From: Verrucomicrobiales bacterium
Lineage (GTDB): Bacteria; Verrucomicrobiota; Verrucomicrobiia; Verrucomicrobiales; DEV007
NCBI GenBank assembly: GCA_030730365.1
Contig: JANQVJ010000012.1
Span: 108,642 to 172,641 of the forward strand
DNA length: 64,000 bases
Direction of reading: 5' to 3'
Both the position numbers and the translations under genes were made by a program. The notes under the pieces are model-generated. The model made no database searches and was not told the origin of the DNA. It was given only the letters and a program-made list of their open reading frames with translations. This document shows, piece after piece, positions 11,234 to 27,743 of this stretch. The first letter of the stretch is position 1; the number at the start of each line of letters is the position of its first letter.

Positions 11234-13060
11234 TCACATCCGGCAGATGAGCAGCTCGCGTTCGTAGATGAGCTCGCGGGGCAGATGCGTCTTCAGATCA
11301 AGAAAAAGCTCTTCGTGCGAGAGGATCTCGTGTCTCCAGGCTTCCCGGTCGAAATGCTGGAGTTCGTTGAATTTTTCTTCGGGGAAGTCGAGACCGTTCC
11401 AGTCGATGTCACCGTAGCCGGGAACCCAGCCGATCGGGGTCTCTCTGGCAACCCCGTGGCCGTTGGCGCGGTCCACGATCCACTTCAGCACGCGCATGTT
11501 CTCGCCAAAGCCGGGCCAGAGGAATTCGCCGGCGGTATCTTTGCGGAACCAGTTTACGTGAAAAATCCGCGGCGAGGAGCTGAGGCTGCGCTGCATCGAG
11601 AGCCAGTGACGGAAGTATTCCCCCATGTTATAGCCGCAGAAAGGCAGCATCGCCATCGGGTCGCGACGCACTTTTCCGATGGTCCCGGCGGCGGCGGCGG
11701 TCATCTCGCTGCCCATCGTCGCGCCCATGTAGACGCCGCTGCTCCAGTTGAAGGCCTGGTAGACCAGCGGCATCGTCGTGGCGCGCCGTCCGCCGAAGAT
11801 GATCGCGCTGACGGGCACCCCCTCGGGCTTTTCCCAGTCCGGATCGATCGTGGGACACTGCGACGCGGGGGCGGTGAAGCGGGCGTTGGGATGCGCGGCC
11901 TTGGCACCGGTAGTGGCGGCGATCTCCGGAGTCCAGGCCTTGCCCTGCCAGTCGGTCGCTGCGGCGGGCGGCTCGGCCGTCATGCCCTCCCACCAGACGC
12001 CGCCTTCAGGGGTGAGCGCCACGTTGGTGAAAATGGTGTTTTTTCGCAGCGAGGCCATCGCATTGGGGTTCGTCGCTTCACCGGTGCCGGGCGCGACGCC
12101 GAAGAAGCCAGCCTCGGGATTGATCGCGTGCAGTCGTCCATCGGGGCCTGGTTTGATCCACGCGATGTCGTCACCGACGGTCCAGACTTTCCAGCCCTGC
12201 TCCTGAAAATGTTTCGGCGGGATGAGCATGGCAAAGTTCGTCTTGCCGCAGGCACTGGGAAAGGCTGCCGCCACGTAGGTCTTGTGTCCCTGCGGATCTT
12301 CCACGCCCAGGATGAGCATGTGCTCGGCCATCCAGCCCTCGTCGCGGGCCATGGCCGAGGCGATACGAAGGGCGAAGCATTTTTTCCCGAGCAGAGCATT
12401 GCCCCCGTAGCCCGATCCGTAGCTCCAGATCTCGCGGCTTTCGGGGAAATGGACGATGTACTTGTCAGGATTGCAGGGCCAGGGCACGTCGGTCTGACCC
12501 GGCGCGAGGGGCGCGCCGACGCTGTGCATGCAGGGCACGACCCGCTTGTCGGCACGGTCGATGAGTTCGAAGACCGGCTTCCCGATGCGCGCCATGATGC
12601 GCATGTTGACCACCGCATAGGGCGAGTCGGTCAGCTGCACCCCGATCTGAGCCATGGGCGAGTCGAGGGGACCCATGCTGAACGGTAGCACATACATCGT
12701 GCGCCCCTTCATGCAACCGTCGAAGAGTTTGCGGAGCTTGCGCTTCATCTCGAAGGGATTGACCCAGTTATTCGTGGGTCCCGCTCCGTCTTTTGAGGCG
12801 CTGCAGATGAAAGTGCGGTCTTCGACCCGGGCGACATCGCTCGCATCGGATCGGGCGAGGAAAGAACCGGGCCAGAGGGTCTCGTTCAGTTTAATGAGGG
12901 TGCCGGCATCGACCATCTCCGCGCAGAGGCGATCGTATTCGGCCTGCGACCCGTCGACCCAGTGGATGCGGTCCGGCTTGCAGAGAGCGGACATCTTTTT
13001 GACCCAGCGGAGCAGGTGGACATTTTCGCTGAGGGGCGTGGAGGGGTCCGATTCGTTCAT
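11234..13060 (-). CDS. pckG: Phosphoenolpyruvate carboxykinase (GTP)
   Basis: [69 protein letters not shown]. Confidence 0.97.
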
Positions 13061-13238
13061 GAGAGGAAGAACCGCGGCAGAGTCTCAGGTAAGCCCTGCT
13101 TCGAGAGAAGATTTGCGGTTGCTGCAATCTTGACCTTCCTAGGCGATGCGTCACGGGAAAAGTCCGTGACGCCGCCCATAAGCGTGAGGTTTTCTCACGG
13201 ATTCACCGGGTTATTGAGATGTCGCCCGACCCGCCTCG

Positions 13239-14384
13239 CTACTCCTCCGCCGTCAGACTCCATTCGGGCAGGTGCATCAACTCGCCGCCCTTTAGCGCGC
13301 TCTCGTGTGCGAGAATGCCGCAGAGGGTAATATTTGCCGACTGGATCGCGTTCGGATATCCCTCGCCGGTCCCTCGGAGCAGCTCCACGAACTGATGCAC
13401 CAGGTGAGGGTGCGAGCCGCCGTGCCCGGCGCCTTGGGTGAAGCTGAGGTGCTCTTCACCTCCGTCGCCGCCGTAGACACCACCCTGGGTGAAGGGTGCG
13501 ATTTCATCAGGGAGAAGGTGGCCGTAGTCGGGGCAGGTGACGTGCTCGGGGATTTCGGGCTCGGGCTTTTTCGCGGTGTGGACGACGAGGGGTTCGTGTT
13601 CCACGAGAGGCCACTCGACGGCTTTTTTCGATCCGTAGACTTCGAAGCTCTCGCGATACTGACGGGCGACATCGAAGAGGGAACGGTAGACCTGGGCGCT
13701 GAGGTCACTCTTGTGGAACTTGATGTGTGTCGTCTCGACGGCGAAGGGAGAGCCGTAGCAGCCATGCATCTCTTCGCGGATCGTGCCGCTGGGGAAACAG
13801 CTCACGTAGGCGGCCTCGTTGCGGGCGAGCCCGAGGACAGGTCCAACACAATGGGTCGCGTAGTGCATAGGGGGGAGGCCCGGCCAGTAGCCCGGCCAGC
13901 CGTCCATGTCCTGCTGGTGGCTCGCCTTGAGGAACTGCAGTTTGCCGAGCTCGCCCTTGTCGTAGAGCTCTTTCATGAAGAGGAACTCACGGGCGTAGAC
14001 GACGGTCTCCATCATCATGTAGTGAAGTCCGGTCTCGCGGCAGAGTTCGACGATGGCCTTGCAATCCTCGACCGAGGTCGCCATCGGCACGGTGCAGGCG
14101 ACATGCTTGCCGGCGCGAAGGGCGGCGAGGGTGTGTTCGGCGTGGTTTGGGATGGGGGTGTTGATGTGGACGGCGTCAATGTCAGGATCGGCGAGAACGT
14201 CGGCGTAGTCGGTGTAGCGCTTTTCGATGCCGAACTTGTCGCCGATTTCGTTGAGCAGTTCGGGATTACGCTGGCAGATCGCGCTCATCTCCGCATTGGG
14301 ATGGCGCTGGTAGATGGGGATGAACTCGGCGCCGAAGCCGAGCCCGATGATGGCGACGCGAGGTTTTGTGATGGGCGGAGTCAT
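13239..14384 (-). CDS. Gfo/Idh/MocA family oxidoreductase
   Basis: VAIIGLGFG Rossmann motif, DIDAVHINTP..H, GKHVACTVPMA. Start estimated at MTPPIT. Confidence 0.88.
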   Translation of the reverse strand: MTPPITKPRVAIIGLGFGAEFIPIYQRHPNAEMSAICQRNPELLNEIGDKFGIEKRYTDYADVLADPDIDAVHINTPIPNHAEHTLAALRAGKHVACTVPMATSVEDCKAIVELCRETGLHYMMMETVVYAREFLFMKELYDKGELGKLQFLKASHQQDMDGWPGYWPGLPPMHYATHCVGPVLGLARNEAAYVSCFPSGTIREEMHGCYGSPFAVETTHIKFHKSDLSAQVYRSLFDVARQYRESFEVYGSKKAVEWPLVEHEPLVVHTAKKPEPEIPEHVTCPDYGHLLPDEIAPFTQGGVYGGDGGEEHLSFTQGAGHGGSHPHLVHQFVELLRGTGEGYPNAIQSANITLCGILAHESALKGGELMHLPEWSLTAEE

Positions 14385-14511
14385 GTAGTAGAGAGAACAG
14401 TTCCAAAGAATTGGCAAGTTCCTTCGCGTCCGCCCGTGGTTCTTGAAGCCGACGGACGGATTTTATGTGATTCCAGCCCTGGCGGAATTTGATTGCAGCG
14501 TCACGAGCCGT

Positions 14512-15993
14512 TCAGGTGATCATCTCCCGCAGGATGTGTCCGTGGACATCCGTGAGACGTCGGTCGATGCCGTTGTTTCTGACGCTGAGGCGCTCGTGGT
14601 CGATCCCGAGTTGGTGCAGGACCGTTGCATGGATGTCGTAGACGGAGGACGAGTGCGCGCGATCCTGCGGGCGGAATCCCCACTCGTCGCTCTCCCCGTA
14701 GGTGCCGCCCTTGATCCCGCCGCCGCAGAGCCAGTTGGTGAAAACGAAGGGGTTGTGATCACGTCCCTTGCTCCCCTGCGAGCAGGGCATGCGCCCGAAC
14801 TCAGTCGTCCAGAGGATGATGGTGTCGTCGAGCATGCCGCGTTGTTTGAGGTCTTTGATGAGGCCGGCGGTGCCGCGGGCCATGCCGAGGGCGAGGGGGC
14901 CGTGGTCGCGATGGATGTCCTCGTGACTGTCCCAGTTGCGGCGGGGGAACCCGTTGTCGTTTCCGCTCCAGATCTGCACAAATCTCACGCCGCGCTCGAG
15001 GAGTCGGCGGGCGACGAGACATTTTCGCCCGAAAAATTCGCTCTCGGCCTTTTCGTTGATGGTCGTGTCGTCGATACCGGGTCCCTCGGGAGCGAGGCCG
15101 TAGAGCGTCTTGATGTAGTCGGGTTCGCGTGAAAGATCGAGGGCATCGGTCGCGCTGAGCTGCATGGCTGCGGCGAGTTCGTAAGAGCGGACCCGGGCGC
15201 TGAGTCTGTCGTCGCCGGGGTGAGAAAGGGCGTGGAGGGAATTCAGCTGCGAGAGGGCATCGAGCCCGGCGCGGTCGTTCTGCGAATTGATGAAGCGGCT
15301 CGCGGGAGCGACGAGATCGGCGATGGGCGTTTCGCTGCCGGGTCGGATCACGGTGCCCTGGTGGCGGGCGGGAAGAAAGGCGTTGGCCCAGTTCTTCGAA
15401 CCGTTCGAGGCGAGTCCGCGATGATCGGGGAGAACAACGAAGGATGGCAGATTCTCACTCTCGCTCCCGAGTGCGTAGGAGACCCACGAGCCTGCACTGG
15501 GGAAGCCCGGAAAGGTAAAGCCTGTCGATTGCAGCAGGGTGCCCTGGCTGTGCACGCCGGTTTTCCCGACGACGTTGTGGACGAAGGCGATGTCATCGAC
15601 GACCTCGCCGAGCGGAGCGACGACCTCGCTGAGCATCTTGCCGCTCTGACCGTAAGGTTTGAAAGCCCACGGCCCGGCAAAGCAGGCGCCGGGGGTGCTT
15701 TGGAACAGCTCGACGGTCTCGCCCGGATCCCACGGGGTGCCGTCCTTTTCTTTCAGGAGCGGTTTATGGTCAAAGGTATCGACGTGGCTCGCCGCACCCG
15801 CCATGAAAAGCTGGATGACCCGCTTTGCCCGCGGCGGCGCATGGAGCACTCCCGAGAGGACGCCGTCCCGGGCAAGCATGTCCGTGAGCGCGAGACCGGA
15901 GAACGAGCCCGCGAGTGTGCCGAGAAACTGGCGGCGGTTGGAAAAAGTCAGTTCACGCCGGGGTTGGTGTGTGTTAATCTGTGGAGTTGTCAT
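14512..15993 (-). CDS. DUF1501 domain protein, Tat-exported
   Basis: SNRRQFL twin-arginine motif, AKRVIQLFMAG, FGRKCLVARRLLERGVRFVQI, TTEFGRMP, GRDHNP. Confidence 0.9.
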   Translation of the reverse strand: MTTPQINTHQPRRELTFSNRRQFLGTLAGSFSGLALTDMLARDGVLSGVLHAPPRAKRVIQLFMAGAASHVDTFDHKPLLKEKDGTPWDPGETVELFQSTPGACFAGPWAFKPYGQSGKMLSEVVAPLGEVVDDIAFVHNVVGKTGVHSQGTLLQSTGFTFPGFPSAGSWVSYALGSESENLPSFVVLPDHRGLASNGSKNWANAFLPARHQGTVIRPGSETPIADLVAPASRFINSQNDRAGLDALSQLNSLHALSHPGDDRLSARVRSYELAAAMQLSATDALDLSREPDYIKTLYGLAPEGPGIDDTTINEKAESEFFGRKCLVARRLLERGVRFVQIWSGNDNGFPRRNWDSHEDIHRDHGPLALGMARGTAGLIKDLKQRGMLDDTIILWTTEFGRMPCSQGSKGRDHNPFVFTNWLCGGGIKGGTYGESDEWGFRPQDRAHSSSVYDIHATVLHQLGIDHERLSVRNNGIDRRLTDVHGHILREMIT

Positions 15994-16249
15994 GGACGAA
16001 AATATTCAAGAGTTGGCTGATTCGATTTACCGCGAGAAAGTACGACGAGCGCGAAAGGCTTCACCGTCGAAAAAAATGGGATGGGGCGCTGAACTTTTTG
16101 CTGAAGTTTGCGGAAGAATGCGCTCGGGGATTCGATCACAACACCCGGAAGCCACCAACGCCGAAGTGGAAGCAATTCTTTGCAAGCGCCTGGATCGTCT
16201 TACAAGGCTGCATGAGTCGGGCGTTTTTGAGAAGACACCGAGACGATGA
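15992..16249 (+). CDS. Small basic helical protein, putative antitoxin/partner of the downstream nucleotidyltransferase
   Basis: 85 aa, MDENIQELADSIYREKVRRARK...GIRSQHPEATNAEVEAILCKRL. Stop overlaps the next start (ATGA). Confidence 0.6.
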   Translation: MDENIQELADSIYREKVRRARKASPSKKMGWGAELFAEVCGRMRSGIRSQHPEATNAEVEAILCKRLDRLTRLHESGVFEKTPRR

Positions 16250-16818
16250 AAAACGGTAATGCGGCGGCGGCCCGGGTTATTGATGTGCTCAATACGCTTG
16301 GAATCGATTTTTTCCTCGCCGGGTCCTATTCCTCCAACTACTACGGAATTCCGAGAGCAACGCAGGATGCCGATTTCGTCGCGGTGCTCTCGAACAACAT
16401 AGGACTGCTGTCTCGCGAGCTTGGGCCGGAGTTTGAATTGGATCCCCAGACTTCGTTTGAAGGGATTACGGGAACCCTGAGAGACATTTTCCAGGTGCCG
16501 TCTATTCCATTTAAAATTGAGATCTTCCACCTGAGCCAGGATGCCCACGACCAGTCCAGATTCGCTCGTAAGAGGAAAGTTTTCGACGAGATGCTTGGCC
16601 GGGAGGTCTACATTCCTTCGGTCGAGGACGTGGTCGTTACCAAGTTGAGGTGGGAGAAAAGGGGTAAACGAGGTAAAGACGGTAGTGACATCCGCGACGT
16701 CATTGCCGTGCAGGGCGACGAGGGTTTTGACTGGGATTACATCCAACGCTGGACAGAAGAGCACGGTACGCGAGAACTGCTCGACGAGATCCGGAGTTCT
16801 ATCCCGCCGATTGACTGA
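16246..16818 (+). CDS. Pol-beta superfamily nucleotidyltransferase (DUF6036/MNT-like), putative toxin-antitoxin component
   Basis: LAGSYSSNYYGIPRATQDADF = hGS..DxD motif, C-terminal KDGSDIRDVI, FDWDYIQRW. Confidence 0.75.
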   Translation: MKNGNAAAARVIDVLNTLGIDFFLAGSYSSNYYGIPRATQDADFVAVLSNNIGLLSRELGPEFELDPQTSFEGITGTLRDIFQVPSIPFKIEIFHLSQDAHDQSRFARKRKVFDEMLGREVYIPSVEDVVVTKLRWEKRGKRGKDGSDIRDVIAVQGDEGFDWDYIQRWTEEHGTRELLDEIRSSIPPID

Positions 16819-16834
16819 CTTGCTTAACCGTCGC

Positions 16835-19810
16835 TCACTCCACATACACAAAAGCGTTCAGGTTCATCACGACGCGGGCGAAGCTTTCTTCGCCGTGCTT
16901 TTTCAAATGGCCGACGAGCACCGCTCGTTCTTCCGGCGTGGGAAGGCGTCCGATCGCGAGGCGGCAGGCGAGGTCGACTTTTTCTTCCGGCGACGCGGGG
17001 GCTTCGCGGCGGAGACGTTCGGCGAAGTGGATCGACATGGCCTCGACGAAACGATTGTTCCATTGCGTCAGCGCCTGTAGGGCGGTGGTGGATTCGTCGC
17101 GCCCGGGCACGCTCATGGAAGGATCGGCGCAGTCGAGCGTCGTTAGCATGGGCTGCGGCTGCGAGCGCACGACAAAGCGGTAGATCGTGCGGCGGTGGGC
17201 GGCAGGGTCGTTTGGATCGTGGAGGTGATACTGGTAATGGGGCGAATGTGCGGGTTTTTCGATGACAAAATCCTGAAAGGGTTTGCCGCCGACTTTTCGA
17301 TCGAGTTTTCCGCTCACCGCGAGGACCGAGTCGCGGAACTCTTCCGCCGAGAGTCTCCGCCGGTTCGCGCGCCAGAGGATCGTGTTGCCTCCGTCGATCG
17401 CGGCATTCGCCTCGTCGTGCGCGACCGAACGCCGGTAGGCCTCACTCGTGACGAGGAGACGGACGATTGATTTTAATGACTTGTCAGGATCATTCCGCAG
17501 CGTCGCAGCGAGGTAGTCGAGCAGTTCGGGATGGGTCGGCTCCAATCCGCCGCGCCCGAAGTCATTCGGCGTGCCGACGAGGGGCGCGCCGAAGGTCCAC
17601 TGCCAAAGCCGGTTCGCGATGGAGCGCCACGCGAGCGGATTGTCATCGCGGACGAGGTAGGCGGCGAGGGCGGCGCGGGCTTTTCCTTCGTCCCAGGTCT
17701 CGCCGGCGAGTTCGGGGAACTGTTCCGCTACGCCCGACCAGAGCGGCGGGGCCCCCGGCGAAACGGCATCGCCGGGAGAGCTGAGGTCTCCGCGATGGAG
17801 CACGTGAATGGGACGCGGCTTGCCGTCAGTCGGGCGGAAGCTGCCGCCCTGAGTGAAACGCGTCGCCGCCGCGTAGACGAGTTCGCCTTGCGGGAAGGTC
17901 TTCAGCTGTTCCTCGAGAGGAGCGAGTTCTTTCCCTATCGCTTCGAGTCGCGCGACGCTATCGGGCGTGCGCAGCGATTCCTCGATGGCACGCCGTTCGC
18001 TCTGCAAGGCGTGGAGTTCGGCGAGCGCCTTGTCGTTGGATAGCTCGCGGTGGTAAATGCCATCGACGAGGTTTGTCTTTCGCCAGCGCTCGCCCGATTC
18101 GATGCTGTCTTTCGACGTCACTGTCGCCGCCTTCGCCAGATTGATGGCGTCGGCGGCGGCGATCACTTCGAATTCGGCGAGCGCAAGCATGTAGTCGTCT
18201 TTCCGCTCGGCCAGTTTCGTGGCGGTGAGGCGGACAAAACGAAAGGCGCGGTCTGCGGTCGGGATTGTGATCGGTGCGGTACGGGGATTGGCCTGGTCGT
18301 GGCCGGTCGCGTCGTGGACGATGACCACGCCGCTTTTGAATTCCGCCTCGTCGGAGACCTCGACGCGGTATCGAAGGGGAAAGCCGAAGCCGCCGCCGAT
18401 CCCGGCGAAGTCGTCGTAGGCCGGCCGCAGGCGGATCTCGGCGACGGGAGCGGACTGCCCGAGGTCGAGCTGCACCCATTTTTCCTCGTCGTTTTTCTTC
18501 GTGATCTGGCTGTGGAAGCCATACTGCGGCTTCAATTCGTCGGAGCCGTGCTGCGTCTTCAGTTCCTCGATGCGGCGATCCACTCCTGAAGCTTTTTCGG
18601 CGACGAGCTTTTTGAAATCCCCCTCGAGCTTGCTCTTTTCATTCTTCAGCGTGTTGATTCGCGAAGTCAGCTCGAGGCGCGCTTTTTCCCGCTCGGGCGG
18701 CAGTCCGGCGTAGACCCGGTCGGCGCGATCAACGGCGGCGAAGACGGCGTGGAGACGGTAGTAGTCCTCCATGCGGATGGGATCGAACTTGTGATGATGA
18801 CACTGCGCGCACTGCACCGTCGTGCTCTGGAACGCGTTGAAGGTGGCGGAGATCATCTCGTCGCGGTCGAGGTGCTTGGCGATGCGACCGTCGAGCTTGC
18901 CTTCGCCGACTTCCCAGTGTCCGATGAAATCCCAGGGACCCGCCGCGAGGAAGCCAAGGGCAACGACGCCGTCGGGATCTCCGGGGAAGAGGATGTCGCC
19001 GGCGACCTGCTCCTCTACGAAGCGGGAGAAGGACTTGTCCTCATTGAAGCTGCCGATGACGTAGTCGCGATAGGGCCAGGCATTGGTGCGTGGCTTGTCT
19101 TTGTCATAGCCGTGCGTCTCGGCGTAGCGGGCGAGGTCGAGCCAGTGCTGGGCGAACTTTTCGCCGAAGGCGGGCGAGGCGAGGAGCCGGTCGGTGAGGT
19201 GGCGGATGGCGGATTTTGGATTTTGGATCGATTCGGCTTCGAAGGCGGCGATTTCTTCGGGTGAGGGCGGCAGGCCGGTGAGGTCGTAGGAGAGGCGGCG
19301 AATGAGCACGGCAGGCGTCGCCGCGGCGACAGGCTTCAGGCCCCGTTCGGCGAGGCGCTTTTCGATGAAGTAGTCGACCGGATTCCGGCCTGACAGGGTT
19401 GACTCATCGACCAAACCCTCTTTGATCGGGCGCAGGGACCACCAGTCGAGATCGCGCGGGGGATTGTAGGCGAGGGTCCGTTCGGCCGGCCAGGGAGCCC
19501 CGGCGGCGATCCAGTCGGAAAGGATTTTGACTTGAGCGTCCGTGAGCGGGGCCTCTTTTTTCGGCATCTGCGGTTCGGGTCCCGAGACGATCTCGATGAG
19601 GTCCCCGATGGAGCCATGGGAAAAGGCGGTCTCACGCGAGGAAAGGTCGAACTTTCCCTTCTTCGCATCCGCGTCGTGGCAGAAGAGACACTTCGCCTCG
19701 AGGATGGGAGCGACGTCTTTCTCGAAGTCGGGAGCCGCCTCGAGCAATCCGGGCGTGGCGATGCCGAACGTGGCCACGCTAAGCAAAAAGAGGCGCTGCA
19801 TCTTGAACAT
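16835..19810 (-). CDS. PSD1 (DUF1553)/DUF1549/planctomycete cytochrome c protein with an inserted F5/8-type-C (discoidin-like) domain
   Basis: CLFCH, WWSLRP, LIRRLSYDLTG, WLDLARYAET, CAQCHHHKFD, NRLWQWTFG, HPELLDYLA, ALQALTQWN. Start estimated. Confidence 0.92.
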   Translation of the reverse strand: MFKMQRLFLLSVATFGIATPGLLEAAPDFEKDVAPILEAKCLFCHDADAKKGKFDLSSRETAFSHGSIGDLIEIVSGPEPQMPKKEAPLTDAQVKILSDWIAAGAPWPAERTLAYNPPRDLDWWSLRPIKEGLVDESTLSGRNPVDYFIEKRLAERGLKPVAAATPAVLIRRLSYDLTGLPPSPEEIAAFEAESIQNPKSAIRHLTDRLLASPAFGEKFAQHWLDLARYAETHGYDKDKPRTNAWPYRDYVIGSFNEDKSFSRFVEEQVAGDILFPGDPDGVVALGFLAAGPWDFIGHWEVGEGKLDGRIAKHLDRDEMISATFNAFQSTTVQCAQCHHHKFDPIRMEDYYRLHAVFAAVDRADRVYAGLPPEREKARLELTSRINTLKNEKSKLEGDFKKLVAEKASGVDRRIEELKTQHGSDELKPQYGFHSQITKKNDEEKWVQLDLGQSAPVAEIRLRPAYDDFAGIGGGFGFPLRYRVEVSDEAEFKSGVVIVHDATGHDQANPRTAPITIPTADRAFRFVRLTATKLAERKDDYMLALAEFEVIAAADAINLAKAATVTSKDSIESGERWRKTNLVDGIYHRELSNDKALAELHALQSERRAIEESLRTPDSVARLEAIGKELAPLEEQLKTFPQGELVYAAATRFTQGGSFRPTDGKPRPIHVLHRGDLSSPGDAVSPGAPPLWSGVAEQFPELAGETWDEGKARAALAAYLVRDDNPLAWRSIANRLWQWTFGAPLVGTPNDFGRGGLEPTHPELLDYLAATLRNDPDKSLKSIVRLLVTSEAYRRSVAHDEANAAIDGGNTILWRANRRRLSAEEFRDSVLAVSGKLDRKVGGKPFQDFVIEKPAHSPHYQYHLHDPNDPAAHRRTIYRFVVRSQPQPMLTTLDCADPSMSVPGRDESTTALQALTQWNNRFVEAMSIHFAERLRREAPASPEEKVDLACRLAIGRLPTPEERAVLVGHLKKHGEESFARVVMNLNAFVYVE

Positions 19811-19875
19811 GCCTGAAGATGAGGGATTTGCGGCCTCCCCACAAGCCACGAAAACGCGTCACACGGTGACGTCGA

Positions 19876-20517
19876 TCAGACGAGCCCTTCGCGCAGGGCT
19901 TTGGCGACGGCACCGCCGAGGGTGTTGACGTGGAGCTTGCGGTAGATGCGCCGCACGTAGTTGTCGACCGTGTGGATGCTAAGGTCGAGACGGTCGGCGA
20001 TCTCCTTCTTCGCCAGTCCGTCGACGAGGCAGCGTAGGACTTCCTCTTCACGCTCGGAGAGGTGCACCTCGCTGCCGGCCGGCTGGAGCTGGCTGAAGCG
20101 GGCGACGACGAGTCGGGCGATCTCGGGTGTCATGGGTGATCCGCCTTCGATGACCTCGCGCACCGCCGCGGCGATGCGGTCGGGGGACTCGGACTTCAGC
20201 AGGTAGCCCGAGGCTCCGGCGCAGAGGGCTTCGAAGATTTTTTCCCTGTCATCGAAGACGGTGAACATGACGATCTCGGTCGCGGGAAAGCGTTCTTTGA
20301 AAAGCCGGATGCCCGCAATCCCCGACATGCCGGATAGCCCGATGTCGAGAACGATCGCATCGGGGGCGGGACCGTCCGAGGCGAGGGCTGCCTCGCACGA
20401 AGCGAAGGTCGTCGCCAGGCCGGTGCCCGATTCCGTGATGATCTCGGCGAGTGTGGAGCGGAGGAGGGAGTGGTCCTCGACGATCCAGACGGCGGGCAGG
20501 GGGAGCGGGGCGGACAT
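19876..20517 (-). CDS. NarL/LuxR family response regulator
   Basis: IVEDH, VLDIGL receiver domain, GASGYLLK, LSEREEEVL..GLAKKEIADRLDLSIHTV HTH. Confidence 0.93.
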   Translation of the reverse strand: MSAPLPLPAVWIVEDHSLLRSTLAEIITESGTGLATTFASCEAALASDGPAPDAIVLDIGLSGMSGIAGIRLFKERFPATEIVMFTVFDDREKIFEALCAGASGYLLKSESPDRIAAAVREVIEGGSPMTPEIARLVVARFSQLQPAGSEVHLSEREEEVLRCLVDGLAKKEIADRLDLSIHTVDNYVRRIYRKLHVNTLGGAVAKALREGLV

Positions 20518-20519
20518 GG

Positions 20520-22508
20520 TCAGGGGCGGGGCAGGGGAATCTCGAGGATGACGTTGGTGCCGGCTCCGGGAGCAGACTCGATGTGGCAGGTTCCGCCGAG
20601 GACTCTCGCCCGTGCTTGGAAATTGAGAAGTCCGCGTCCGCGCCCCGTCTCCGGCGAGCTCAGGTCAAAGCCGGATCCGTTGTCGCCGACACGCATAGTC
20701 AGGGTGGAGTCGCTCCAGTTTATCCGAACGGTGACCGAGGTCGCTCCGGCGTGTTTTTGTGCGTTTGTCAGGGATTCCTTCAGAAAAAGGACGATCTCGC
20801 GCGCCCATTCGATGGGTGGGCTCCCGGCGGGCGGGTGACCCTCACTCTCGAAGCGATGCGCGACGCCCTCGAGGAGCCGTTCGGCGATGTTTTCCATCCG
20901 CGTCTCGAGATCGGTCCAGCTCCCCGCGACGGGGGCGAGCAGCCAGACGACGTCACGCATGTTGTCGAGCGTCTCGCGGGCGGAATCCGAGATCGAGGCA
21001 AGACGTTCCGCCACCGGATCACCCTCGCTGATGCGGCTGCGGGCGAGGTCGCTCTGCAGGGCGAGATGGCTGAGGCTGGCGCCGAGTTCGTCGTGGAGAT
21101 CACCGGCGATGCGCCGCTTCAACTCCTCCGCTGCGAGGACCGCGCGGCGGCGCTGGGCAAGGATGACGATGACGGCTCCGAGGGCGATAAGGACAACGGC
21201 GAGACCGGCGCCGTAGAGCCAACGCCGCAGCGTTTGTTCGCGATTTTTCTCGACGAGGATGGCGAGGGCACCGGCCCGTGTCTCCAGTTCCTCGCGCTCG
21301 GAGAGGGCATCGAGCCAGGCCTGCCACGAGGTGAGATCGTTGCGGCTGGAAAATCCGTCGGTGAGCGCCTCGAGACGCCAGAGGCCGGTCGTGGTCGCGT
21401 CGGCGGCGGTGACGTTTTTTCCGGCGGCGACATTTCCCCCTGCTGACCAGGCCTGCAGTTCGGCGAGGGCGAAGATGTAGTCATCGGTCCGTCGCCAGAG
21501 TTCCAGCGCTTCGACTCGGAGATAACGCACGGCACCACGAGTACCCGGGAGGATCACCGCGGCCGCCCCGGGGTTGCGATAGGGTGCCTCGCCGGAGTCG
21601 AAGATCACTGTTTCCACCCCGCTCGCGCTGCGCCCCGTCACCCGGAAGCGCGGCGGAAAACCGAAGCCCGCGGTATCGGCAAAGTCGCGCGGGTGGGCGG
21701 GAAAGAGGTGGATCCCGTCAATAACCGCGTCCCCGCCGAGATCGACCTCGACCCACTTCGGCGGGGTCGCTCCGCTCGTTTCGATGAGGCTGTGGTAGCC
21801 GTTGCTCGGAGACTCCGCTTTTCCCGCAAAGGGCAGACACCAGAGAAAGCCGTCGGTGAGATTCGAGACCTGCCAGCGGGGAGCGTTCTCGATCGAGGCC
21901 GTCGTCGTGACGGATCGGTGCAGCGCGACGTTGGCGCCTTTCTCCAGCACGACAATCTCGCCGAGAGTGAAGAAGTTACCGCGCCCGGTGCCGCGCTCCC
22001 TCGATCCGGTGACGGATACCCTGACAAATCGACCACTTGCTCCGTTCCCCGAGATGCGGAGAAAAGGCAGCCTGGTCGCGGCTCCGTCGGTCTCTTCGCT
22101 CCAGCGGACGAGGCGGATGGGACGGGCAAAGGTCACCTCGTCCGCGATCTCGACAGTGACGGCGGGCGGGAATCCATTCGACGCATCACTGCCCGGTGCG
22201 TCGGTGGGAAGGCGGGCAGGGAAGAGAATGATCTCGTCGGGGATGACTTCGCGACCGAGATCGACGACGAGGTGATTAGGATCACGCGGCGTGCCGTAGA
22301 GACCGATGCGTCCGTGGATCTGCTCGGAGGGGATCAAGGTGGGGAGCGTCCCGAGGAGACTTCCGAGGTCTTCCAGTTGTTGCTGCGGCGATGCTGAGGG
22401 ATCCTGTGCGAGAGACGGCTGCGACAGGCTTAGAGCGACTGAGAGCGAGAGGAATGAGACGGTGGGATTCAATACGGTTGAATCATAGCATGGCGCAGGA
22501 TGAGGCAA
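20520..22508 (-). CDS. Sensor histidine kinase (HisKA_3/HATPase) with tandem extracellular discoidin-like domains
   Basis: Signal peptide, two xVDLG...RxxRV...LxE units, one TM (WLYGAGLAVVLIALGAVIVILA), RIAGDLHDELG, ESLTNAQKH, DNGSGF, GRGLLN. True start may be TTG at 22472. Confidence 0.9.
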   Translation of the reverse strand: MPHPAPCYDSTVLNPTVSFLSLSVALSLSQPSLAQDPSASPQQQLEDLGSLLGTLPTLIPSEQIHGRIGLYGTPRDPNHLVVDLGREVIPDEIILFPARLPTDAPGSDASNGFPPAVTVEIADEVTFARPIRLVRWSEETDGAATRLPFLRISGNGASGRFVRVSVTGSRERGTGRGNFFTLGEIVVLEKGANVALHRSVTTTASIENAPRWQVSNLTDGFLWCLPFAGKAESPSNGYHSLIETSGATPPKWVEVDLGGDAVIDGIHLFPAHPRDFADTAGFGFPPRFRVTGRSASGVETVIFDSGEAPYRNPGAAAVILPGTRGAVRYLRVEALELWRRTDDYIFALAELQAWSAGGNVAAGKNVTAADATTTGLWRLEALTDGFSSRNDLTSWQAWLDALSEREELETRAGALAILVEKNREQTLRRWLYGAGLAVVLIALGAVIVILAQRRRAVLAAEELKRRIAGDLHDELGASLSHLALQSDLARSRISEGDPVAERLASISDSARETLDNMRDVVWLLAPVAGSWTDLETRMENIAERLLEGVAHRFESEGHPPAGSPPIEWAREIVLFLKESLTNAQKHAGATSVTVRINWSDSTLTMRVGDNGSGFDLSSPETGRGRGLLNFQARARVLGGTCHIESAPGAGTNVILEIPLPRP

Positions 22509-23003
22509 AGCTCATTCAACGTGTAAAGAGAGTGAGGCATGCCGTGATCACGGGCTCGTGACCTGCGCAGAGGCACTGCTACCCTGCTCTTGCCTTGGTC
22601 GCTTCTCCCTTTTTCCTGAGGATACGTTTCTTTCCCCTTGTTTTGCTTCTCGCCGGAAAGGCGATCGCCGATATCGTGAAAGTAGTGGTGTGAGACCGCG
22701 CGCCCTTCGCTGAGGGAAACGGGCAGGACTACCCTTCGTCGTGGCTGGCAGGGCCGGGGAGTCCTGCACAAGCGACCGCGACGATGGTGCACTCAAAACG
22801 CTGGCGGGAACTTACCTGAATGTCGGAGACTCAGGGGCGGCTCTCGCGCTGCTCGTTTCCCGCTCGTTACAGTTCCGTCTTCGCCCAAAGCAGAATCAGG
22901 ACGCGAGTATGAAGATGAAGACGGATGAATTGCAGATCACCCTCGAGTCCATCGCGCTCTTTGCGTAGGGGGGATTTGGGAGGGGAGTTACCCCATCATC
23001 CCG

Positions 23004-24461
23004 TCATCCCATCAACGCCTTCACCGGCTTCACCATCTCCACACCGGTAAGTCGACCGTCGAGGCCCTGGTGTTTGTAGGTGAGGCGAAGGTGATCGAAG
23101 CCTAGCAGGTGCATCACGGTGGCGTGGAATTCGCTGATGTGGAGCGGATCGCGGACGATGTTGTAGCTGAAGTCGTCGGTCTCGCCGTAGATCGTTCCGC
23201 CTTTAGCCCCTCCTCCGGCCATCCACATGCTGAAGCAGCGGGGATGGTGGTCGCGTCCGTAGTTTTCCTTCGAGAGATTTCCCTGACTGTAAATGGTGCG
23301 TCCGAACTCCCCGCCCCAGATGATGAGCGTGTCTTCGAACATGCCGCGCTGCTTGAGATCCTGAATGAGGGCGGCGCAGGGCTGGTCGATGTCGCGGCAC
23401 TGGTCGGGCATGCGGCCGCCGACATTGGAGTGGTGGTCCCAGTTGTTGTGATAGATCTGGACAAAGCGCACCCCGCGCTCGGCGAGACGGCGGGCCATGA
23501 GGACGGAGTTGGCAAAGCTCCCGGGCTTCTTCGCGGACTCGCCGTAGAGCTTGTAGACGTGATCGGGCTCGGACGCAATGTCGGTGAGTTCGGGCACGCT
23601 CGCCTGCATGCGGAAGGCCATTTCGTATTGCTGGATGCGGACGCGGGTCTCGGGATCGCCGAAGGCCTCGTAGTTCATCTGGTTCATCCCGTTGATCCCC
23701 TCGATCGTCTGCCGACGGACGGAGTTAGGTACGCCGGGAGGATTGTTGATGAAGAGGATGGGATCGCCCTTGCTGCGGAAGGAGACGCCGGCGTGTTCTC
23801 CGGGGAGGTATCCGCTCGACCAGAGGCGGGCGGAGATGGCCTGCTCCTGCTCGCGGTTGGTCGGGGTCGCGACGAGGACGACGAAGGTGGGCAGATTTTC
23901 ATTCATCGAACCGAGCCCATAAGAAGCCCATGCCCCGAGGCAGGGCCGTCCGGTGACCTGATTGCCGGTTTGCATTGCGGCGATGGCGGGCTCGTGATTG
24001 ATTGCCTCGGTGTGGAGGGAACGCATCCAGCAGATGTCGTCGGCGCGTTCGCCGAGGTGGGGGAGCAGGTCGGAGTTCATCCACATGCCGCACTCGCCGC
24101 GCTGCGCGAAGTTGAACTTCGACGGAGCGATGGGGAAGCGGGCCTGGCCACTCGTCATCGTGGTAAGACGCTGCCCCTGCCGGATACTCTCGGGGAGGTC
24201 TTTGTCATACATCTTCACCATCTCAGGCTTGTAGTCGAAGAGATCCATCTGCGAAGGTCCACCGACCATGTGGAGGTAGATGACGCGTTTCGCCTTGGCG
24301 GGGAAGTGGGTCACGGGGAGCGAGACTTCGGGCTCGGCCGCGGAAAAGACCCGGCGCGGACCCATCAGCGACGCGAGAGCGGCGGAGCCGAGGAGATTAC
24401 GACCTTTCGCGAAGAAATGGCGGCGGGTTTGGTTGAGGAGAAGGTCGGGGGGGAGGTTCAT
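23004..24461 (-). CDS. DUF1501 domain protein, Tat-exported
   Basis: QTRRHFF twin-arginine motif, AKRVIYLHMVGGPSQMDLFDYKP, ARRLAERGVRFVQ, GGEFGRT, GRDHHP. Confidence 0.92.
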   Translation of the reverse strand: MNLPPDLLLNQTRRHFFAKGRNLLGSAALASLMGPRRVFSAAEPEVSLPVTHFPAKAKRVIYLHMVGGPSQMDLFDYKPEMVKMYDKDLPESIRQGQRLTTMTSGQARFPIAPSKFNFAQRGECGMWMNSDLLPHLGERADDICWMRSLHTEAINHEPAIAAMQTGNQVTGRPCLGAWASYGLGSMNENLPTFVVLVATPTNREQEQAISARLWSSGYLPGEHAGVSFRSKGDPILFINNPPGVPNSVRRQTIEGINGMNQMNYEAFGDPETRVRIQQYEMAFRMQASVPELTDIASEPDHVYKLYGESAKKPGSFANSVLMARRLAERGVRFVQIYHNNWDHHSNVGGRMPDQCRDIDQPCAALIQDLKQRGMFEDTLIIWGGEFGRTIYSQGNLSKENYGRDHHPRCFSMWMAGGGAKGGTIYGETDDFSYNIVRDPLHISEFHATVMHLLGFDHLRLTYKHQGLDGRLTGVEMVKPVKALMG

Positions 24462-24578: not shown

Positions 24579-27500
24579 CTATTTATTCAGCGCCTCATCC
24601 AAATTCATTAACTGATTGCAAACCATCGTCCACGCCGCGAGGACGGGCGGGGCGATGGCTTTTTCGGCGGGGTTTTCGCCCACGGCGAGGAGGGCGGCGG
24701 TGTCTTCGGGAGTCGTCTGGTAGTGGCTGAGGAGCGAGTGATGGCTCGACTGCATAAGGTTTTTCTCGACCTCGCTGAGGGGTCGGGAAAGGAGACGGCG
24801 GGCGATGAGGTCGAGGGTGTGTTCGTCGTCACCTTTGCTCTCCTGCAGGGCGAGGGTCGCGAGGCGTCGGGCGGCTTCGATGAACTGGGGATCGTTCAGC
24901 GTCACGAGCGCCTGAAGCGGGGTGTTGGTGCGGTCGCGCTTGAGACAGCTGACCTCGCGGTTTGGTGCATTGAAGATTTCCATGCTCGCCGGCGGGGCCA
25001 TGCGCTTCCAGTAGTTGTAGACAGTGCGACGATAAAGGCCATCGCCTTTGTCCTGTGCGTATTTGGCGTTGCCCATGCCGACGGTTTCCCAGACGTTCTC
25101 GGGTTGGTAGGGTTTCGTGCCGGGACCACCCATGGTGGTGGAGAGCGTCCCGCTCGCGGCAAGGGCGCTGTCGCGTATCATCTCGCCGTCCATGCGGTAG
25201 CGCGGACCGCGGCTGAGGAGGCGATTGTCGCGGTCTTTCTCGATCTTGTCCGGGGTAGCCATTGCGGACTGACGGTAGGCGGACGACATGAGGATAGTCT
25301 TGAAAAGGGCTTTCGTGTCCCAGCCCGATTCGATGAATGTCAGGGCGAGCCAGTCGAGGAGTTCGGGGTGGCTGGGGGCGGCGCCCATGAGCCCGAAGTC
25401 GTCGGGGGTGGCGACGATGCCGGTGCCGAAGATCTCCTGCCAGAAGCGATTCACGGTGACGCGGGCGGTGAGAGGATTCTGCGGATCGACGAGCCACTTT
25501 GCAAGGCCGAGGCGGTTCGCGGGAGCACCCTCAGGGAGCGGGTGGAGGACGGCAGGCGGGGCGGCGGCGACCTGCTCACCGACCATGTCGTAGGCACCGC
25601 GCTCGAGGATGTTCGCCATCGCGGGCGAGTCCTTTTTCTCTTCCTGGATGTGGGTCACGGGGCTGCGCCCTTTGATCGTGTCGCGCTCACCCTCGAGTTT
25701 TGCGACGGCGAGATTGAGATCCTGCCAGGGCTTGTCGCGGGTCGCCAGGTAGTTGGCGAAAAGACTCTCAGTCTGTTCGGGCTTGCGCTTCTCCCCGGCG
25801 GCAAGGGCAGCATTGAGAGCGGGGAGTTGGTGGAGACTGGCTGCCTCGGCGGGGGTGAGTCGCTTGGTGAAAAGGCGCAGGTCCTGGACCTGCCCGTCTT
25901 CGAAGAACATGCCGGTGCTGCGCTGACCGAGGCGCAGGGGCGTGTTCGTACGGGTCTCGGCGTCGGCCTTGAGTTTGTCGGTGGTGGCGCGCAGGGGAGT
26001 GTCGGCTCCGTTCACGTAGAGTTTCACGCCGCCGGGTTTGCCGCTGCCGTCATAGGTCACAGTGAGGTGTTGCCACTGGCCGGGTGAGAGGACGGCGCGG
26101 GTCGTGGTGACCTTGAGCGCGTTTTCGGGCCAGGTGTCGATGAGGTGAAAGGCGAGGTTGCGGTTTTCCTGGAGGATGTCCCAGCCGCGGTGAGCTGCCT
26201 TGTCATCCATGCGGGCGATGATGGATCCGCTGAAGCCATCTTTCGGCGAGCGGACCCAGAGGGAGATGGTGAATGGTTCGTTGCGGGCGAAGTTTCCGAG
26301 ATCACCGAGTTCGATTGGAGTTTCTTTTTTCAGAACAGGGGCTTGACCGAATTTGCCTCCAGCAGCCCAGGCGAGTTCTCCGGTCGCTTTGAAGTTCGCT
26401 CCGGCGGGCAGTCGCGCGGCGAGATCCGGGCCCTTGCCCTCGTTAAGCGGGAGATGGGCGACGAGGCCGTCTTCGGGCATGGTGTCTTCAAGGGCGGCCG
26501 GTGTCGCGGAGGCGAGCCAGGTGTCGAATTCGGGCTTCGCGGCGTTGCGGCGTTCCTGTCGTTTTGTCGAGGCGGCGGTGATCTCGCCGGGCAGGGCGGT
26601 CCAGCGGGGGCGATCGGCGTCGCCCGGGACGACGAGGATGGGGCCGCTGTCTTTCACGTTGCCGTCCTTGGGACCCTGGGTCGTGTTGCGGAAAAAGGCG
26701 GCCATGGAGTAATAGTCCTTCGCCGAGAGGGGGTCGAACTTGTGATCGTGGCACTGCGCGCAGTTGAGAGTGAGGCCGAGATAGATCCAACCGAGGGTCT
26801 GGACCCTGTCAGAGGCATAAAGGGCGATGTTTTCCTCGTCGATCGTGCCGCCTTCGTTGGTCGTCATGTTGCAACGCTGGAAGCCGGTCGCGATGAGCTG
26901 GTCTTCGGTGGGCGAGGGGAGGAGGTCGCCGGCGATTTGCTCGACAGTGAACTGGTCGAAGGAAAGGTTGCGGTTGAAGGCACCGATGACCCAGTCGCGG
27001 TAGAGCCACATCTCGCGGTAATTGTCGAAATGGAGACCATGGGTGTCGGCGTAGCGGGCCGCGTCGAGCCAGTAGCGGCCGCGGTGCTCGCCCCAGTGCG
27101 GCGAGGCGAGGTACTGATCGATTAGCTTTTCGTAGGCCTTCGGATCCTGATCGGCGACAAAGGTCTCGACCTCGGCGGGGGTCGGGGGCAGGCCGGTGAT
27201 GTCAAGAGCAACGCGCCGGGCGAGGGCGCGGCGATCTGCCTCTGGTGCCGGAGAGAGTCCGGCCTTGTCAAGTCCGGCGAAGATGAATTGATCGATGGGA
27301 TTCGATACCCGGTCCTTTGCCGAGACTTCGGGGAGAGCGGGTTGCTCAGGCTTAACAAAACTCCAGTGTGGCTGCCATTTCGCCCCGTCGTTGATCCATC
27401 GGCGGATGATCTCGATCTGCTCGGGCTTGAGTTCCTTGTGGGAATCCGGCGGCGGCATGATGTCGTCGGGACTGTCAGCGATAAGGCGATCGTAGAGGGG

Positions 27501-27743
27501 GCTATCGTCGGCCTTGCCCGGTATCACAACGGGATCGTTCCCGCCTTCGCCGAAGAAGCTCTGCTCGGTGTCGAGTCGCAGGTCCGCCTTACGGGTGCCG
27601 GAATCGGGACCGTGGCAATGGAAGCAGGCGTCCGCGAGGATGGGCCGCACGTCGCGGTTGAACGAGAGCGGAGTATCGGCGCCCTCGAGGCGCGAGACAG
27701 TGATGAGGGCCGTCGGGAGCAGAAAGAGAAATTTCCGGATCAT
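24579..27743 (-). CDS. PSD1 (DUF1553)/DUF1549/planctomycete cytochrome c protein with an inserted LamG (concanavalin-A-like) domain
   Basis: CFHCHGPD, WLDAARYADT, CAQCHDHKFD, FTISLWV...WQHLTVTYDG...LYVNG...LRLG LamG pattern, SHPELLDWLA, TPLQALVTLN. Confidence 0.92.
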   Translation of the reverse strand: MIRKFLFLLPTALITVSRLEGADTPLSFNRDVRPILADACFHCHGPDSGTRKADLRLDTEQSFFGEGGNDPVVIPGKADDSPLYDRLIADSPDDIMPPPDSHKELKPEQIEIIRRWINDGAKWQPHWSFVKPEQPALPEVSAKDRVSNPIDQFIFAGLDKAGLSPAPEADRRALARRVALDITGLPPTPAEVETFVADQDPKAYEKLIDQYLASPHWGEHRGRYWLDAARYADTHGLHFDNYREMWLYRDWVIGAFNRNLSFDQFTVEQIAGDLLPSPTEDQLIATGFQRCNMTTNEGGTIDEENIALYASDRVQTLGWIYLGLTLNCAQCHDHKFDPLSAKDYYSMAAFFRNTTQGPKDGNVKDSGPILVVPGDADRPRWTALPGEITAASTKRQERRNAAKPEFDTWLASATPAALEDTMPEDGLVAHLPLNEGKGPDLAARLPAGANFKATGELAWAAGGKFGQAPVLKKETPIELGDLGNFARNEPFTISLWVRSPKDGFSGSIIARMDDKAAHRGWDILQENRNLAFHLIDTWPENALKVTTTRAVLSPGQWQHLTVTYDGSGKPGGVKLYVNGADTPLRATTDKLKADAETRTNTPLRLGQRSTGMFFEDGQVQDLRLFTKRLTPAEAASLHQLPALNAALAAGEKRKPEQTESLFANYLATRDKPWQDLNLAVAKLEGERDTIKGRSPVTHIQEEKKDSPAMANILERGAYDMVGEQVAAAPPAVLHPLPEGAPANRLGLAKWLVDPQNPLTARVTVNRFWQEIFGTGIVATPDDFGLMGAAPSHPELLDWLALTFIESGWDTKALFKTILMSSAYRQSAMATPDKIEKDRDNRLLSRGPRYRMDGEMIRDSALAASGTLSTTMGGPGTKPYQPENVWETVGMGNAKYAQDKGDGLYRRTVYNYWKRMAPPASMEIFNAPNREVSCLKRDRTNTPLQALVTLNDPQFIEAARRLATLALQESKGDDEHTLDLIARRLLSRPLSEVEKNLMQSSHHSLLSHYQTTPEDTAALLAVGENPAEKAIAPPVLAAWTMVCNQLMNLDEALNK

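Follow-up and report, generated by a model that had tools for sequence, protein, structure and literature searches.

The stretch of DNA analysed here, 64,000 nucleotides (nt) of contig JANQVJ010000012.1 from a Verrucomicrobiales bacterium (the window, in what follows), carries on its minus strand genes for a sensor histidine kinase, a response regulator, an exported DUF1549/DUF1553 protein and a DUF1501 protein. Two of these products, the kinase and the DUF1553 protein, have in common a domain of about 160 amino acids (aa), similar to discoidins and to the carbohydrate-binding modules of family 32 (CBM32), which we name D. To judge from gene content and order in related genomes, the region is one instance of a four-gene cassette conserved in Verrucomicrobiota and also in some Planctomycetota. 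We propose that in this cassette a ligand is sensed by the D domains of the kinase, that the regulator switches on the DUF1549-D-DUF1553 and DUF1501 genes (the effector pair), and that sensor and effector share that ligand, a reading to which we would give a probability of about 0.6. Within the discoidin/CBM32 fold, D forms a distinct branch that is circularly permuted.

A single copy of D is inserted between the DUF1549 and DUF1553 parts of the effector, and two tandem copies make up the whole of the sensing part of the HisKA_3 kinase encoded two genes upstream (Table 1). The domain starts with G-[YF]-H-S and ends with an N-x-A...W...L-x-D-G segment; in the effector its core corresponds to about nt 18155-18538 and the trailing segment to about nt 18059-18154, with helix-prone segments on both sides (18551-18691 and 17894-18040). 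Comparison with BLASTP gave 37% identity over 166 aa (E 2e-27) between effector D and the membrane-proximal copy 2 of the kinase, 32% identity (E 9e-15) between effector D and the membrane-distal copy 1, and again 32% (E 6e-9) between the two kinase copies. A hidden Markov model (HMM) built from the three sequences detected no further copy among the 376 six-frame open reading frames (ORFs) of the window at E<=10. By contrast with these strong pairwise E-values, the Pfam profile PF00754 for F5/8 type C domains scored only 24.3 bits in the whole DUF1553 protein and 14.4 bits in the whole kinase, for a gathering score of 28.2, so that the three copies are far closer to one another than to discoidins in general and make one specific subfamily. 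The initial annotation had come to the sharing by aligning peptide strings by eye. All of these strings are found on the minus strand where it had placed them, pairwise BLASTP and HMM alignment bear out that sensor and DUF1553 protein carry the same domain, and the more diverged copy said to precede copy 2 in the kinase does exist, with the extent given in Table 1. In the window this copy 1 is degenerate (SNGFP for GFGFP, no HS, no KW), and so it is in close relatives; the motif G[YF]GFPxRFRV is kept in copy 1 of most other kinases, which suggests that the distal domain is under relaxed constraint in the clade of the window.

The fold of D was approached with AlphaFold2 models. That of effector D reached a mean pLDDT (the per-residue confidence score) of 92.8 and a pTM of 0.88 with a 73-row alignment, and that of core 2 of the kinase a pLDDT above 90. 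Searched with Foldseek against the PDB, both models returned the same list of matches, with E-values of 1e-4 to 4e-3 at the top. For effector D these were solely structures of the discoidin superfamily, at a probability of 1.00, led by the chitosan-binding CBM32 modules of Paenibacillus (4ZY9/4ZXE, E 2.4e-4) and continuing with the F-type lectin domain of lectinolysin, neuropilin b1, factor VIII C2, CBM32s of Clostridium perfringens and the muskelin discoidin. The models and their matches thus predict an eight-stranded beta-sandwich of the galactose-binding-domain-like superfamily. Only 105-126 columns of effector D could be aligned (TM-score about 0.46 on the query and 0.59 on the target), as would be expected of a sequential aligner that meets a permuted domain. 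D has in common with discoidin, F5/8 type C and CBM32 domains (4ZY9, 4LPL, 2J1E, 4A3Z; neuropilin b1, factor VIII C2) the beta-sandwich and a weak but real PF00754 match, but the segment that makes the first strand, N-terminal in those domains, is C-terminal in D, and the signature GFGFPxR[FY][RK]V is specific to the D family.

This departure from the canonical order of elements, the N-x-A...W...DG segment coming after the core, is found in all three copies of the window and recurs in members of the family, whether these belong to kinases, DUF1553 proteins or GH78 enzymes. When the tail was moved to the front, the PF00754 score rose from 28.3 to 41.2 bits for effector D and from 13.0 to 21.3 bits for kinase copy 2, while copy 1 went from no hit to 12.8 bits, and in these window copies the match, which starts natively at profile position 28, then started at positions 3-8. 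The same operation on 30 relatives, ten D domains from each class, brought the matches at E<=1e-3 from 26 of 30 to all 30 and the best E-value from 1.9e-9 to 1.4e-12; for the first of these relatives the score went from 31.5 to 40.1 bits and the profile range from 31-114 to 9-114. One could still argue that there is no true permutation, the kinase being made of canonical discoidins in which the tail of copy 1 completes core 2, so that its first domain would be truncated and a fragment would be left over at its end, while the DUF1553 insert would be a domain cut short, its trailing match spurious. Canonical and permuted domains in tandem arrays can be told apart only at the ends of the array, and in the intact kinase the weak Pfam hit does run from the tail of copy 1 into the start of copy 2 (aa 207-271, profile 7-55). 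Against this, the single-copy insert of the effector has one core and one trailing segment, no preceding segment being available as a first strand, and this tail is modelled as part of the domain with a pLDDT of 91-98; when the tail of copy 1 was offered to core 2 in native order it stayed at a pLDDT of 31-40; the G-[YF]-H-S start and the D-G end recur unchanged in kinases, DUF1553 inserts and GH78 inserts; and un-permuting improved the Pfam match in every paired test. We see this objection as largely refuted already, and as very improbable. The models indicate that the tail belongs with the core that precedes it, where it may fill the first-strand slot, and not with the one that follows. The circular permutation put forward in the initial annotation is therefore supported both by the gain in PF00754 score and by the placement of the tail in the models. 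An attempt at in-silico un-permutation, in which the tail of copy 1, the linker and core 2 were modelled together, failed as such; the alignment was thin over the tail columns.

A related locus (L053) shows what looks like yet another register of the fold. Its DUF1549/1553 gene, placed after the regulator (12503-15346), carries a discoidin-like insert that begins with the last two strands, followed by the N-x-A...DG segment and then by the core; a doubled window domain aligns with it weakly across the junction (24.6% identity, E 0.01). A tandem array may here have given rise to a second permutation point.

How widespread is this arrangement? An exhaustive search of 1.84 billion representative proteins with the D profile retrieved 369 representative clusters at E<=1e-30 and 2602 at E<=1e-3. 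The larger number overstates the size of the permuted family, as canonical discoidin arrays in GH141, GH116, pectate-lyase-like and GH78 proteins also score, and we trust only the figure of 369. Among the 129 new proteins at the top of the hits, 88 are D-D(-D)-HisKA_3 kinases and about ten are DUF1549-D(-D...)-DUF1553 proteins. When each species was represented by one genome, a scan gave at least 583 matching loci, of which the nearest, at 79% and 62% identity, are in metagenome-assembled genomes (MAGs) of Verrucomicrobiales; the read sets that match the window come from aquatic and seawater metagenomes. We fetched 80 loci to study gene order, of which 51 hold a D-D kinase. The regulator gene comes directly after the kinase gene in 41 of the 44 loci that extend far enough, and, where at least 4.5 kb are available downstream, a DUF1549-D-DUF1553 gene lies within 10 kb in 24 of 40 kinase loci, directly after the regulator in 15, the DUF1501 gene then following in most related loci. 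Within kinase loci, the DUF1549/DUF1553 paralogue nearest to the kinase carries D in 25 of 32 cases, compared with one of six for the paralogues further away (Fisher p 0.008). Together with the conserved upstream box described below, synteny and this paralogue test link the two-component system specifically to the D-bearing DUF1549/DUF1553 gene, as had been supposed at the outset.

The cassette is found in Chthoniobacterales, in Verrucomicrobiales (Prosthecobacter, Brevifollis) and in a MAG of Gemmataceae, and it is present in the cultured strains Prosthecobacter fluviatilis KACC 12649 (L017) and Brevifollis gellanilyticus NBRC 108608 (L039). A search for a fifth gene among the neighbours (Gfo/Idh/MocA oxidoreductase, sulfatase, PEPCK, 3-keto-disaccharide hydrolase) gave none conserved across loci. 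Several records bear implausible names, Akkermansia muciniphila for L010, L011 and L048, Akkermansia sp. for L040 and L044, Bifidobacteriaceae or Bifidobacterium for L068 and L072; given their lake or aquatic bins and their PSCyt/DUF1501 genes, these MAG names are probably taxonomic mislabels.

The relationships between copies of D follow their position in the protein. Mean identity within classes is 0.43 for kinase copy 1, 0.50 for kinase copy 2 and 0.53 for single effector copies, while between classes it is 0.43 for copy 2 and effector, 0.36 for copy 1 and effector and 0.35 for copy 1 and copy 2. A neighbour-joining tree on corrected identities, without support values, likewise groups the sequences by position, kinase copy 1 being monophyletic (52/52) and copy 2 nearly so (50/52), and one copy out of 173 has its nearest neighbour in its own locus. 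Identity between effector D and copy 2 is 0.398 when both are from the same locus and 0.403 across loci (permutation p 0.89). The initial annotation had proposed a domain co-option between sensor and effector at this locus, to be recognised by a tree in which kinase and DUF1553 copies of one locus cluster together. The tree gave a negative answer, and the co-option is not borne out. Locus-specific co-evolution or gene conversion of the sensor and effector copies is ruled out by the same figures. Since copies cluster by position and not by locus, the sharing is old and inherited, the three copies of D having, on these alignments, diverged before the sampled lineages split.

D could also be understood as a module of contact between proteins, in which the D domains of the kinase would touch effector D, or the complex of the effector with its substrate, and would read the state or the amount of the effector, like kinases that are under the control of a periplasmic partner protein. 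The fact that neighbouring proteins of one compartment hold three copies of a single fold would suit such a role, the missing locus-specific divergence is compatible with a conserved interface, and F5_F8_type_C has been counted among the protein-protein interaction domains of PSCyt proteins (He et al., PMC5615132). However, a heterotypic interface should co-vary within loci, which is not seen, the kinase family is without a D-bearing neighbour in 16 of 40 loci, D is present in GH78 glycosidases at the position of a carbohydrate-binding module, and the nearest structural relatives are mostly sugar-binding CBM32. We hold a contact module to be quite improbable.

Right after the stop codon of the regulator, many loci have a box, TGTCCCGCG-CTC-GCGTGGCA in the Prosthecobacter group (in general form TGTCCCGCG-N3-GCGTGGCA) and CATCCCGCG-NNN-GCGTGATGG in Chthoniobacterales. 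It is an imperfect palindrome of 20 bp, with 14 of its 20 positions self-complementary. In the 1.33 Mb of the loci, both strands included, the pattern TCCCG[CT]G-N3-GCG[TC]G has 24 matches, for 2.7 +/- 1.3 in block shuffles, and 22 of these are located within 60 nt upstream of a cassette gene, 21 of them in the orientation of the gene. A D-bearing DUF1549/1553 gene follows in 17 of the 22, including genes that are kilobases away from the regulator (L024, L032, L031) and the one of the Gemmataceae locus L043 (the full list is in Table 1). The box was not found in the 26 loci without kinase, mostly from other lineages. It is a candidate operator of the NarL-type regulator.

The exact pattern is absent from the 64 kb of the window. 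A position weight matrix (PWM) made from 19 unique sites upstream of homologous genes has nevertheless its best hit, on both strands of the whole window, inside the gap of 65 nt that separates the regulator gene from the DUF1553 gene, in the orientation of the latter and with 17 of 24 consensus positions, the prior chance for the top hit to fall in this gap being about 65 in 128,000. It overlaps a perfect 6-3-6 palindrome, CGTCAC-CGT-GTGACG (19857-19871), followed by a T-rich run. We read this site as a candidate operator, diverged from the family box, the alternative being a read-through attenuator. Palindromes of the form GTCAC-Nx-GTGAY, five matches for 1.2 expected, had also been considered as a regulator site preceding both the kinase gene and the DUF1553 gene; they were rejected in favour of the family box, as the kinase-upstream copy is not kept in L001.

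In all three classes of D 21 alignment positions are conserved at 80% or more, among them the GFP-x-R core of GFGFPxR, E559, N570, W589 and D596; at 15 further positions, which include H446, W458, G487, F488, D518, N521, P522, R549 and D552, effector D and kinase copy 2 have the same residue, and copy 1 is relaxed. This fits a situation where effector D and copy 2 would have kept one binding site, copy 1 having drifted to a supporting role. A further way to see D would be as a mere common scaffold of the exported proteins of Planctomycetes, Verrucomicrobia and their relatives (PVC), so that kinase and effector would have unrelated ligands and some other cue would control the genes. It would agree with the many architectures that are retrieved by the D profile, including GH78 and the canonical discoidin arrays of GH141, GH116 and pectate-lyase-like proteins, with the kinases that adjoin DUF1549/1553 genes without D or PSCyt3-type genes, and with the absence of co-variation within loci. 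The excess of D in the nearest paralogue (25/32 compared with 1/6) speaks against it, as does the retention in copy 2 and effector D of the same 15 extra polar and aromatic positions, lost in copy 1, since specificity in CBM32 usually shifts with such loop residues. A mere scaffold seems to us unlikely, if less so than a contact module.

That sensor and effector may share a ligand, probably a glycan, as the initial annotation had suggested, would agree with a fold of the CBM32 type, with these 15 positions, and with the occurrence of D in GH78 alpha-L-rhamnosidases; this ligand is probably a sugar. In the rhamnosidases (P0077, P0080, P0097, P0119; L081 8001-11313 and L082 35-2207) D sits between Ig_Rha78A_N and Bac_rhamnosid_N, in a slot that aligns to residues of about 133-302 of SaRha78A (3W5M), which we take to be its rhamnose-binding CBM67, a module that Fujimoto and colleagues are said to have reported in 2013. 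Domain D of SaRha78A, a label unrelated to ours, is indeed CBM67 (PMC4690510). Because D occurs in GH78, a glycan with 6-deoxy sugars such as a rhamnoside is one candidate for the ligand. An equivalence of our D with CBM67 was rejected: the family profile of D gave no sequence match to it at E<=10, 3W5M is not within the top 50 Foldseek matches of either model, and what remains is the same position in GH78, so that the CBM67 of SaRha78A (3W5M/3W5N) counts as a positional analogue and not as a demonstrated homologue. F-type lectins bind fucose through the motif H-x26-R-x-D-x4-R/K. Inspection of the alignment led us to discard it for D, the histidine of which is four residues before the binding histidine of lectinolysin, the second arginine having no counterpart.

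The scenario that we favour can now be spelled out. An extracytoplasmic ligand, most likely a carbohydrate or a glycoconjugate, would bind the membrane-proximal D domain of the kinase, which would then phosphorylate the regulator; this regulator would bind the imperfect palindrome of 20 bp that closely precedes the DUF1549-D-DUF1553 gene and, if the direction of regulation is as we infer, switch on this gene and that of DUF1501, the products of which would capture the same molecule, or a very similar one, by means of the same type of module. The stronger form of this proposal, that the permuted discoidin module is a matched reader in sensor and effector, so that the inducer of the kinase is the very substrate of the DUF1549-D-DUF1553/DUF1501 system, is tentative, and we would not bet on it at even odds.

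Several observations weigh against this scenario. A D-bearing DUF1553 gene is missing within 10 kb in 16 of 40 kinase loci, and 26 loci, mostly in Planctomycetota and other lineages, have D-bearing DUF1549/1553 genes and no kinase nearby; the loci being phylogenetically related, all counts over them are counts of non-independent events. Specificity shows no sign of co-variation within loci (0.398 compared with 0.403), which fits one invariant ligand and equally fits binding sites without functional coupling. In the window the score of the box, 13.0, is well under the training range of 20.6-33, a terminator scan flags a hairpin that overlaps it, its distance of only about 45 nt to the start codon is tight for a classical activator site, and no box is present upstream of the kinase gene.

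The genes themselves are easily recognised. On the minus strand the order is a DUF1549/DUF1553 gene with a Laminin_G_3 insert, a DUF1501 gene, the HisKA_3/HATPase_c kinase, the receiver-GerE regulator, the second DUF1549/DUF1553 gene, a gap of 840 nt and a second DUF1501 gene; the succession of kinase, regulator and DUF1549/DUF1553 on one strand had been read correctly in the initial annotation.

Table 1. Coordinates in the window of the features discussed, and loci of the sample in which the box was found
Feature	Position or loci	Strand	Details
Effector D, between DUF1549 and DUF1553	18050..18538	-	aa 438-600 of 1004-codon ORF
Kinase D copy 2, membrane-proximal	21345..21818	-	Nearest to effector D
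Kinase D copy 1, membrane-distal	21840..22328	-	254 bits with the three-copy HMM
Candidate regulator-binding box, diverged, CGTGTGACGCGTTTTCGTGGCTTG	19842..19865	-	Best PWM hit in the whole 64 kb, both strands, score 13.0
Box upstream of DUF1549-D-DUF1553	L006, L010, L014, L015, L017, L021-L024, L028, L031-L033, L037, L043, L045, L056		
Box upstream of kinase (four)	L016, L026 (opposite strand), L028, L031		
Box upstream of PSCyt3-type gene (one)	L035		
Sensor histidine kinase, 650 aa	20520..22472	-	Signal/anchor peptide, two tandem permuted discoidin-like domains, transmembrane helix, HisKA_3, HATPase_c
Promoter-like block TTGCCT ... TATGAT	22475..22520	-	Upstream of kinase start; kept in L001 (alignment window + L001-L004)
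NarL/UhpA-class response regulator	19876..20517	-	Pfam Response_reg 69 bits, GerE 56.3 bits
Exported PSCyt2 (DUF1549) - permuted discoidin - PSD1 (DUF1553) protein, 991 aa	16835..19810	-	Pfam PSCyt2 243.7 bits, PSD1 248.7 bits
DUF1501 protein, partner of the DUF1553 protein	14512..15993	-	Pfam DUF1501 433.8 bits; alkaline-phosphatase/sulfatase-type fold family
Other DUF1549/DUF1553 protein, with Laminin_G_3 insert	24579..27743	-	Laminin_G_3 69.7 bits; directly upstream pair with DUF1501
DUF1501 partner of the Laminin_G_3-bearing protein	23004..24461	-	Directly upstream of kinase

The kinase has HisKA_3 (49.1 bits) and HATPase_c (47.6 bits) well above the Pfam cut-offs of 24 and 26.4, with its conserved histidine in the H-box DLHDELG (nt 21081-21101), and the receiver-GerE regulator, with a helix-turn-helix of the LuxR type, is encoded 2 nt downstream: by its domains, this two-component chassis is of the ordinary NarL/UhpA class. 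A signal-like segment (aa 1-23) and one further membrane helix (aa 419-440, nt 21153-21218) predict a periplasmic location for residues of about 25-418. The most likely start codon of the kinase is the TTG at 22472, which gives 650 aa (MNPTVSF...), because a (T/G)TGAAxCC start and a block upstream are shared with related loci in an alignment with L001-L004 and because public gene calls agree; the longest ORF overruns this probable start by 12 codons. The block upstream of it is promoter-like by virtue of its conservation. A consensus promoter scan did not call it, and in the window as a whole the consensus scan for promoters and terminators found no more sites than in shuffles.

As for the effector pair, it has all the attributes of PSCyt2/PSD1 and DUF1501 couples, with both domains in one exported protein, a signal-like N-terminus, two CxxCH motifs (CLFCH at nt 19676-19690 and CAQCH at nt 18797-18811) and a DUF1501 gene nearby. 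Public gene calls start this protein at the ATG at 19810, which gives 991 aa, the ORF as first listed having 1004 codons. The DUF1501 protein has a twin-arginine (Tat) signal, SNRRQFL (nt 15922-15942). From these signal-like N-termini, the membrane helix and the Tat motif, the sensor part of the kinase, the DUF1553 protein and DUF1501 are expected to meet outside the cytoplasm.

The DUF1553 and DUF1501 genes, which adjoin in related loci, are separated here by an insertion of 840 nt (15994-16834) with two overlapping ORFs on the plus strand, opposite to the cassette (about 16020-16249 and 16246-16818), the larger of which, 190 aa, has a weak match, under threshold, to the AbiEii nucleotidyltransferase toxin (20.5 bits for a cut-off of 22.5). 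The insertion looks like a small module of the toxin-antitoxin type. Part of it (16021-16272) is covered by a contig from a lake metatranscriptome. With regard to co-transcription, metatranscriptomes offered only fragments of contigs at low depth, from relatives at 90-95%, none of which spans the junction between regulator and DUF1553 gene. Upstream of the kinase, Laminin_G_3 occupies in the other DUF1549/DUF1553 paralogue the same insertion slot as D, and the same upstream pair is found in L006, L007 and L036; to judge from these sequences, the slot looks like an exchangeable position for binding modules. The broader context has a carbohydrate flavour, with a Gfo/Idh/MocA oxidoreductase, a sulfatase a few kilobases from the cassette (29096-30622, plus strand) and a protein of 1152 aa (30803-34261, minus strand) in which a 3-keto-disaccharide hydrolase domain is fused to a C-terminal cytochrome c motif, such fusions of haem motifs and carbohydrate domains being typical of these genomes.

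How much of this was known? The effector pair of the window is a textbook member of the PSCyt1/PSCyt2/PSD1 and DUF1501 systems of Planctomycetes and Verrucomicrobia. That PSCyt1/2-PSD1 proteins adjoin DUF1501 and carry Laminin_G_3 or F5_F8_type_C inserts, with a proposed role in relation to carbohydrates, has been described (Kamneva et al. 2012 PMC3542564; He et al. 2017 PMC5615132), their function being stated there as unknown; the texts of PMC3542564 and PMC5615132 contain neither 'two-component' nor 'histidine kinase', and describe no matching sensor domain, permutation or upstream box. The kind of effector pair, the F5/8-C-type insert beside DUF1501, the two-component chassis and the design principle of a sensor that carries a binding module are thus already known. 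Our literature searches found no permuted discoidin and no sensor kinase with an F5/8-C domain; Pfam-based standard annotation misses D in the kinase entirely; and NCBIfam has no model for D, for the effector or for DUF1501. The sensor domain of the kinase, its identity with the effector insert, the permutation, the cassette and the box were found neither in the searchable literature nor in Pfam annotation nor in NCBIfam.

The design has parallels elsewhere. In Clostridium thermocellum, RsgI anti-sigma factors with extracellular carbohydrate-binding modules reportedly control SigI regulons, as Nataf and colleagues (in PNAS) and Kahel-Raifer and colleagues are said to have proposed in 2010. There too a membrane sensor bears the type of carbohydrate-binding module of the enzymes that it induces, but the chassis is made of anti-sigma and sigma factors and not of a histidine kinase with a NarL-type regulator, phylum and module family are different, and the chemistry of the effector is unknown in the cassette. 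The hybrid two-component systems of the polysaccharide utilization loci of Bacteroidetes place a periplasmic glycan-sensing kinase beside the degradative genes that it controls; these sensors differ in being of the beta-propeller/Y_Y_Y type, fused to the regulator and without a domain in common with the effector. In eukaryotes, DDR1 and DDR2 are membrane tyrosine kinases with an extracellular discoidin domain that binds collagen. Their domain is canonical, not permuted, and nothing beyond the fold links them in evolution to the D kinases. Finally, NarX/NarL and UhpB/UhpA are like our pair in associating a HisKA_3 kinase with a receiver-GerE regulator, yet their sensor part is unrelated to that of the D-D kinase; the best NCBIfam similarities are to UhpB, MadS, MctS and NarQ for the kinase and to MctR, MadR and NarL for the regulator, all of them far under the cut-offs.

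The consequences of this organisation go beyond the window. In Planctomycetes and Verrucomicrobia, the DUF1549/DUF1553 (PSCyt/PSD) and DUF1501 genes belong to the families that have expanded most, and a natural circular permutant is now added to the discoidin/CBM32 fold, together with a type of histidine-kinase sensor domain that is invisible to Pfam-based annotation and a candidate operator for its regulator. A sensor built from the rare domain of the effector opens a practical route to the substrate of the orphan PSCyt/DUF1501 family, and the presence of the cassette in cultured strains makes a substrate test feasible. If sensor and effector are indeed matched readers of one molecule, a screen with a single domain in these culturable carriers would give the PSCyt/DUF1501 family its first substrate.

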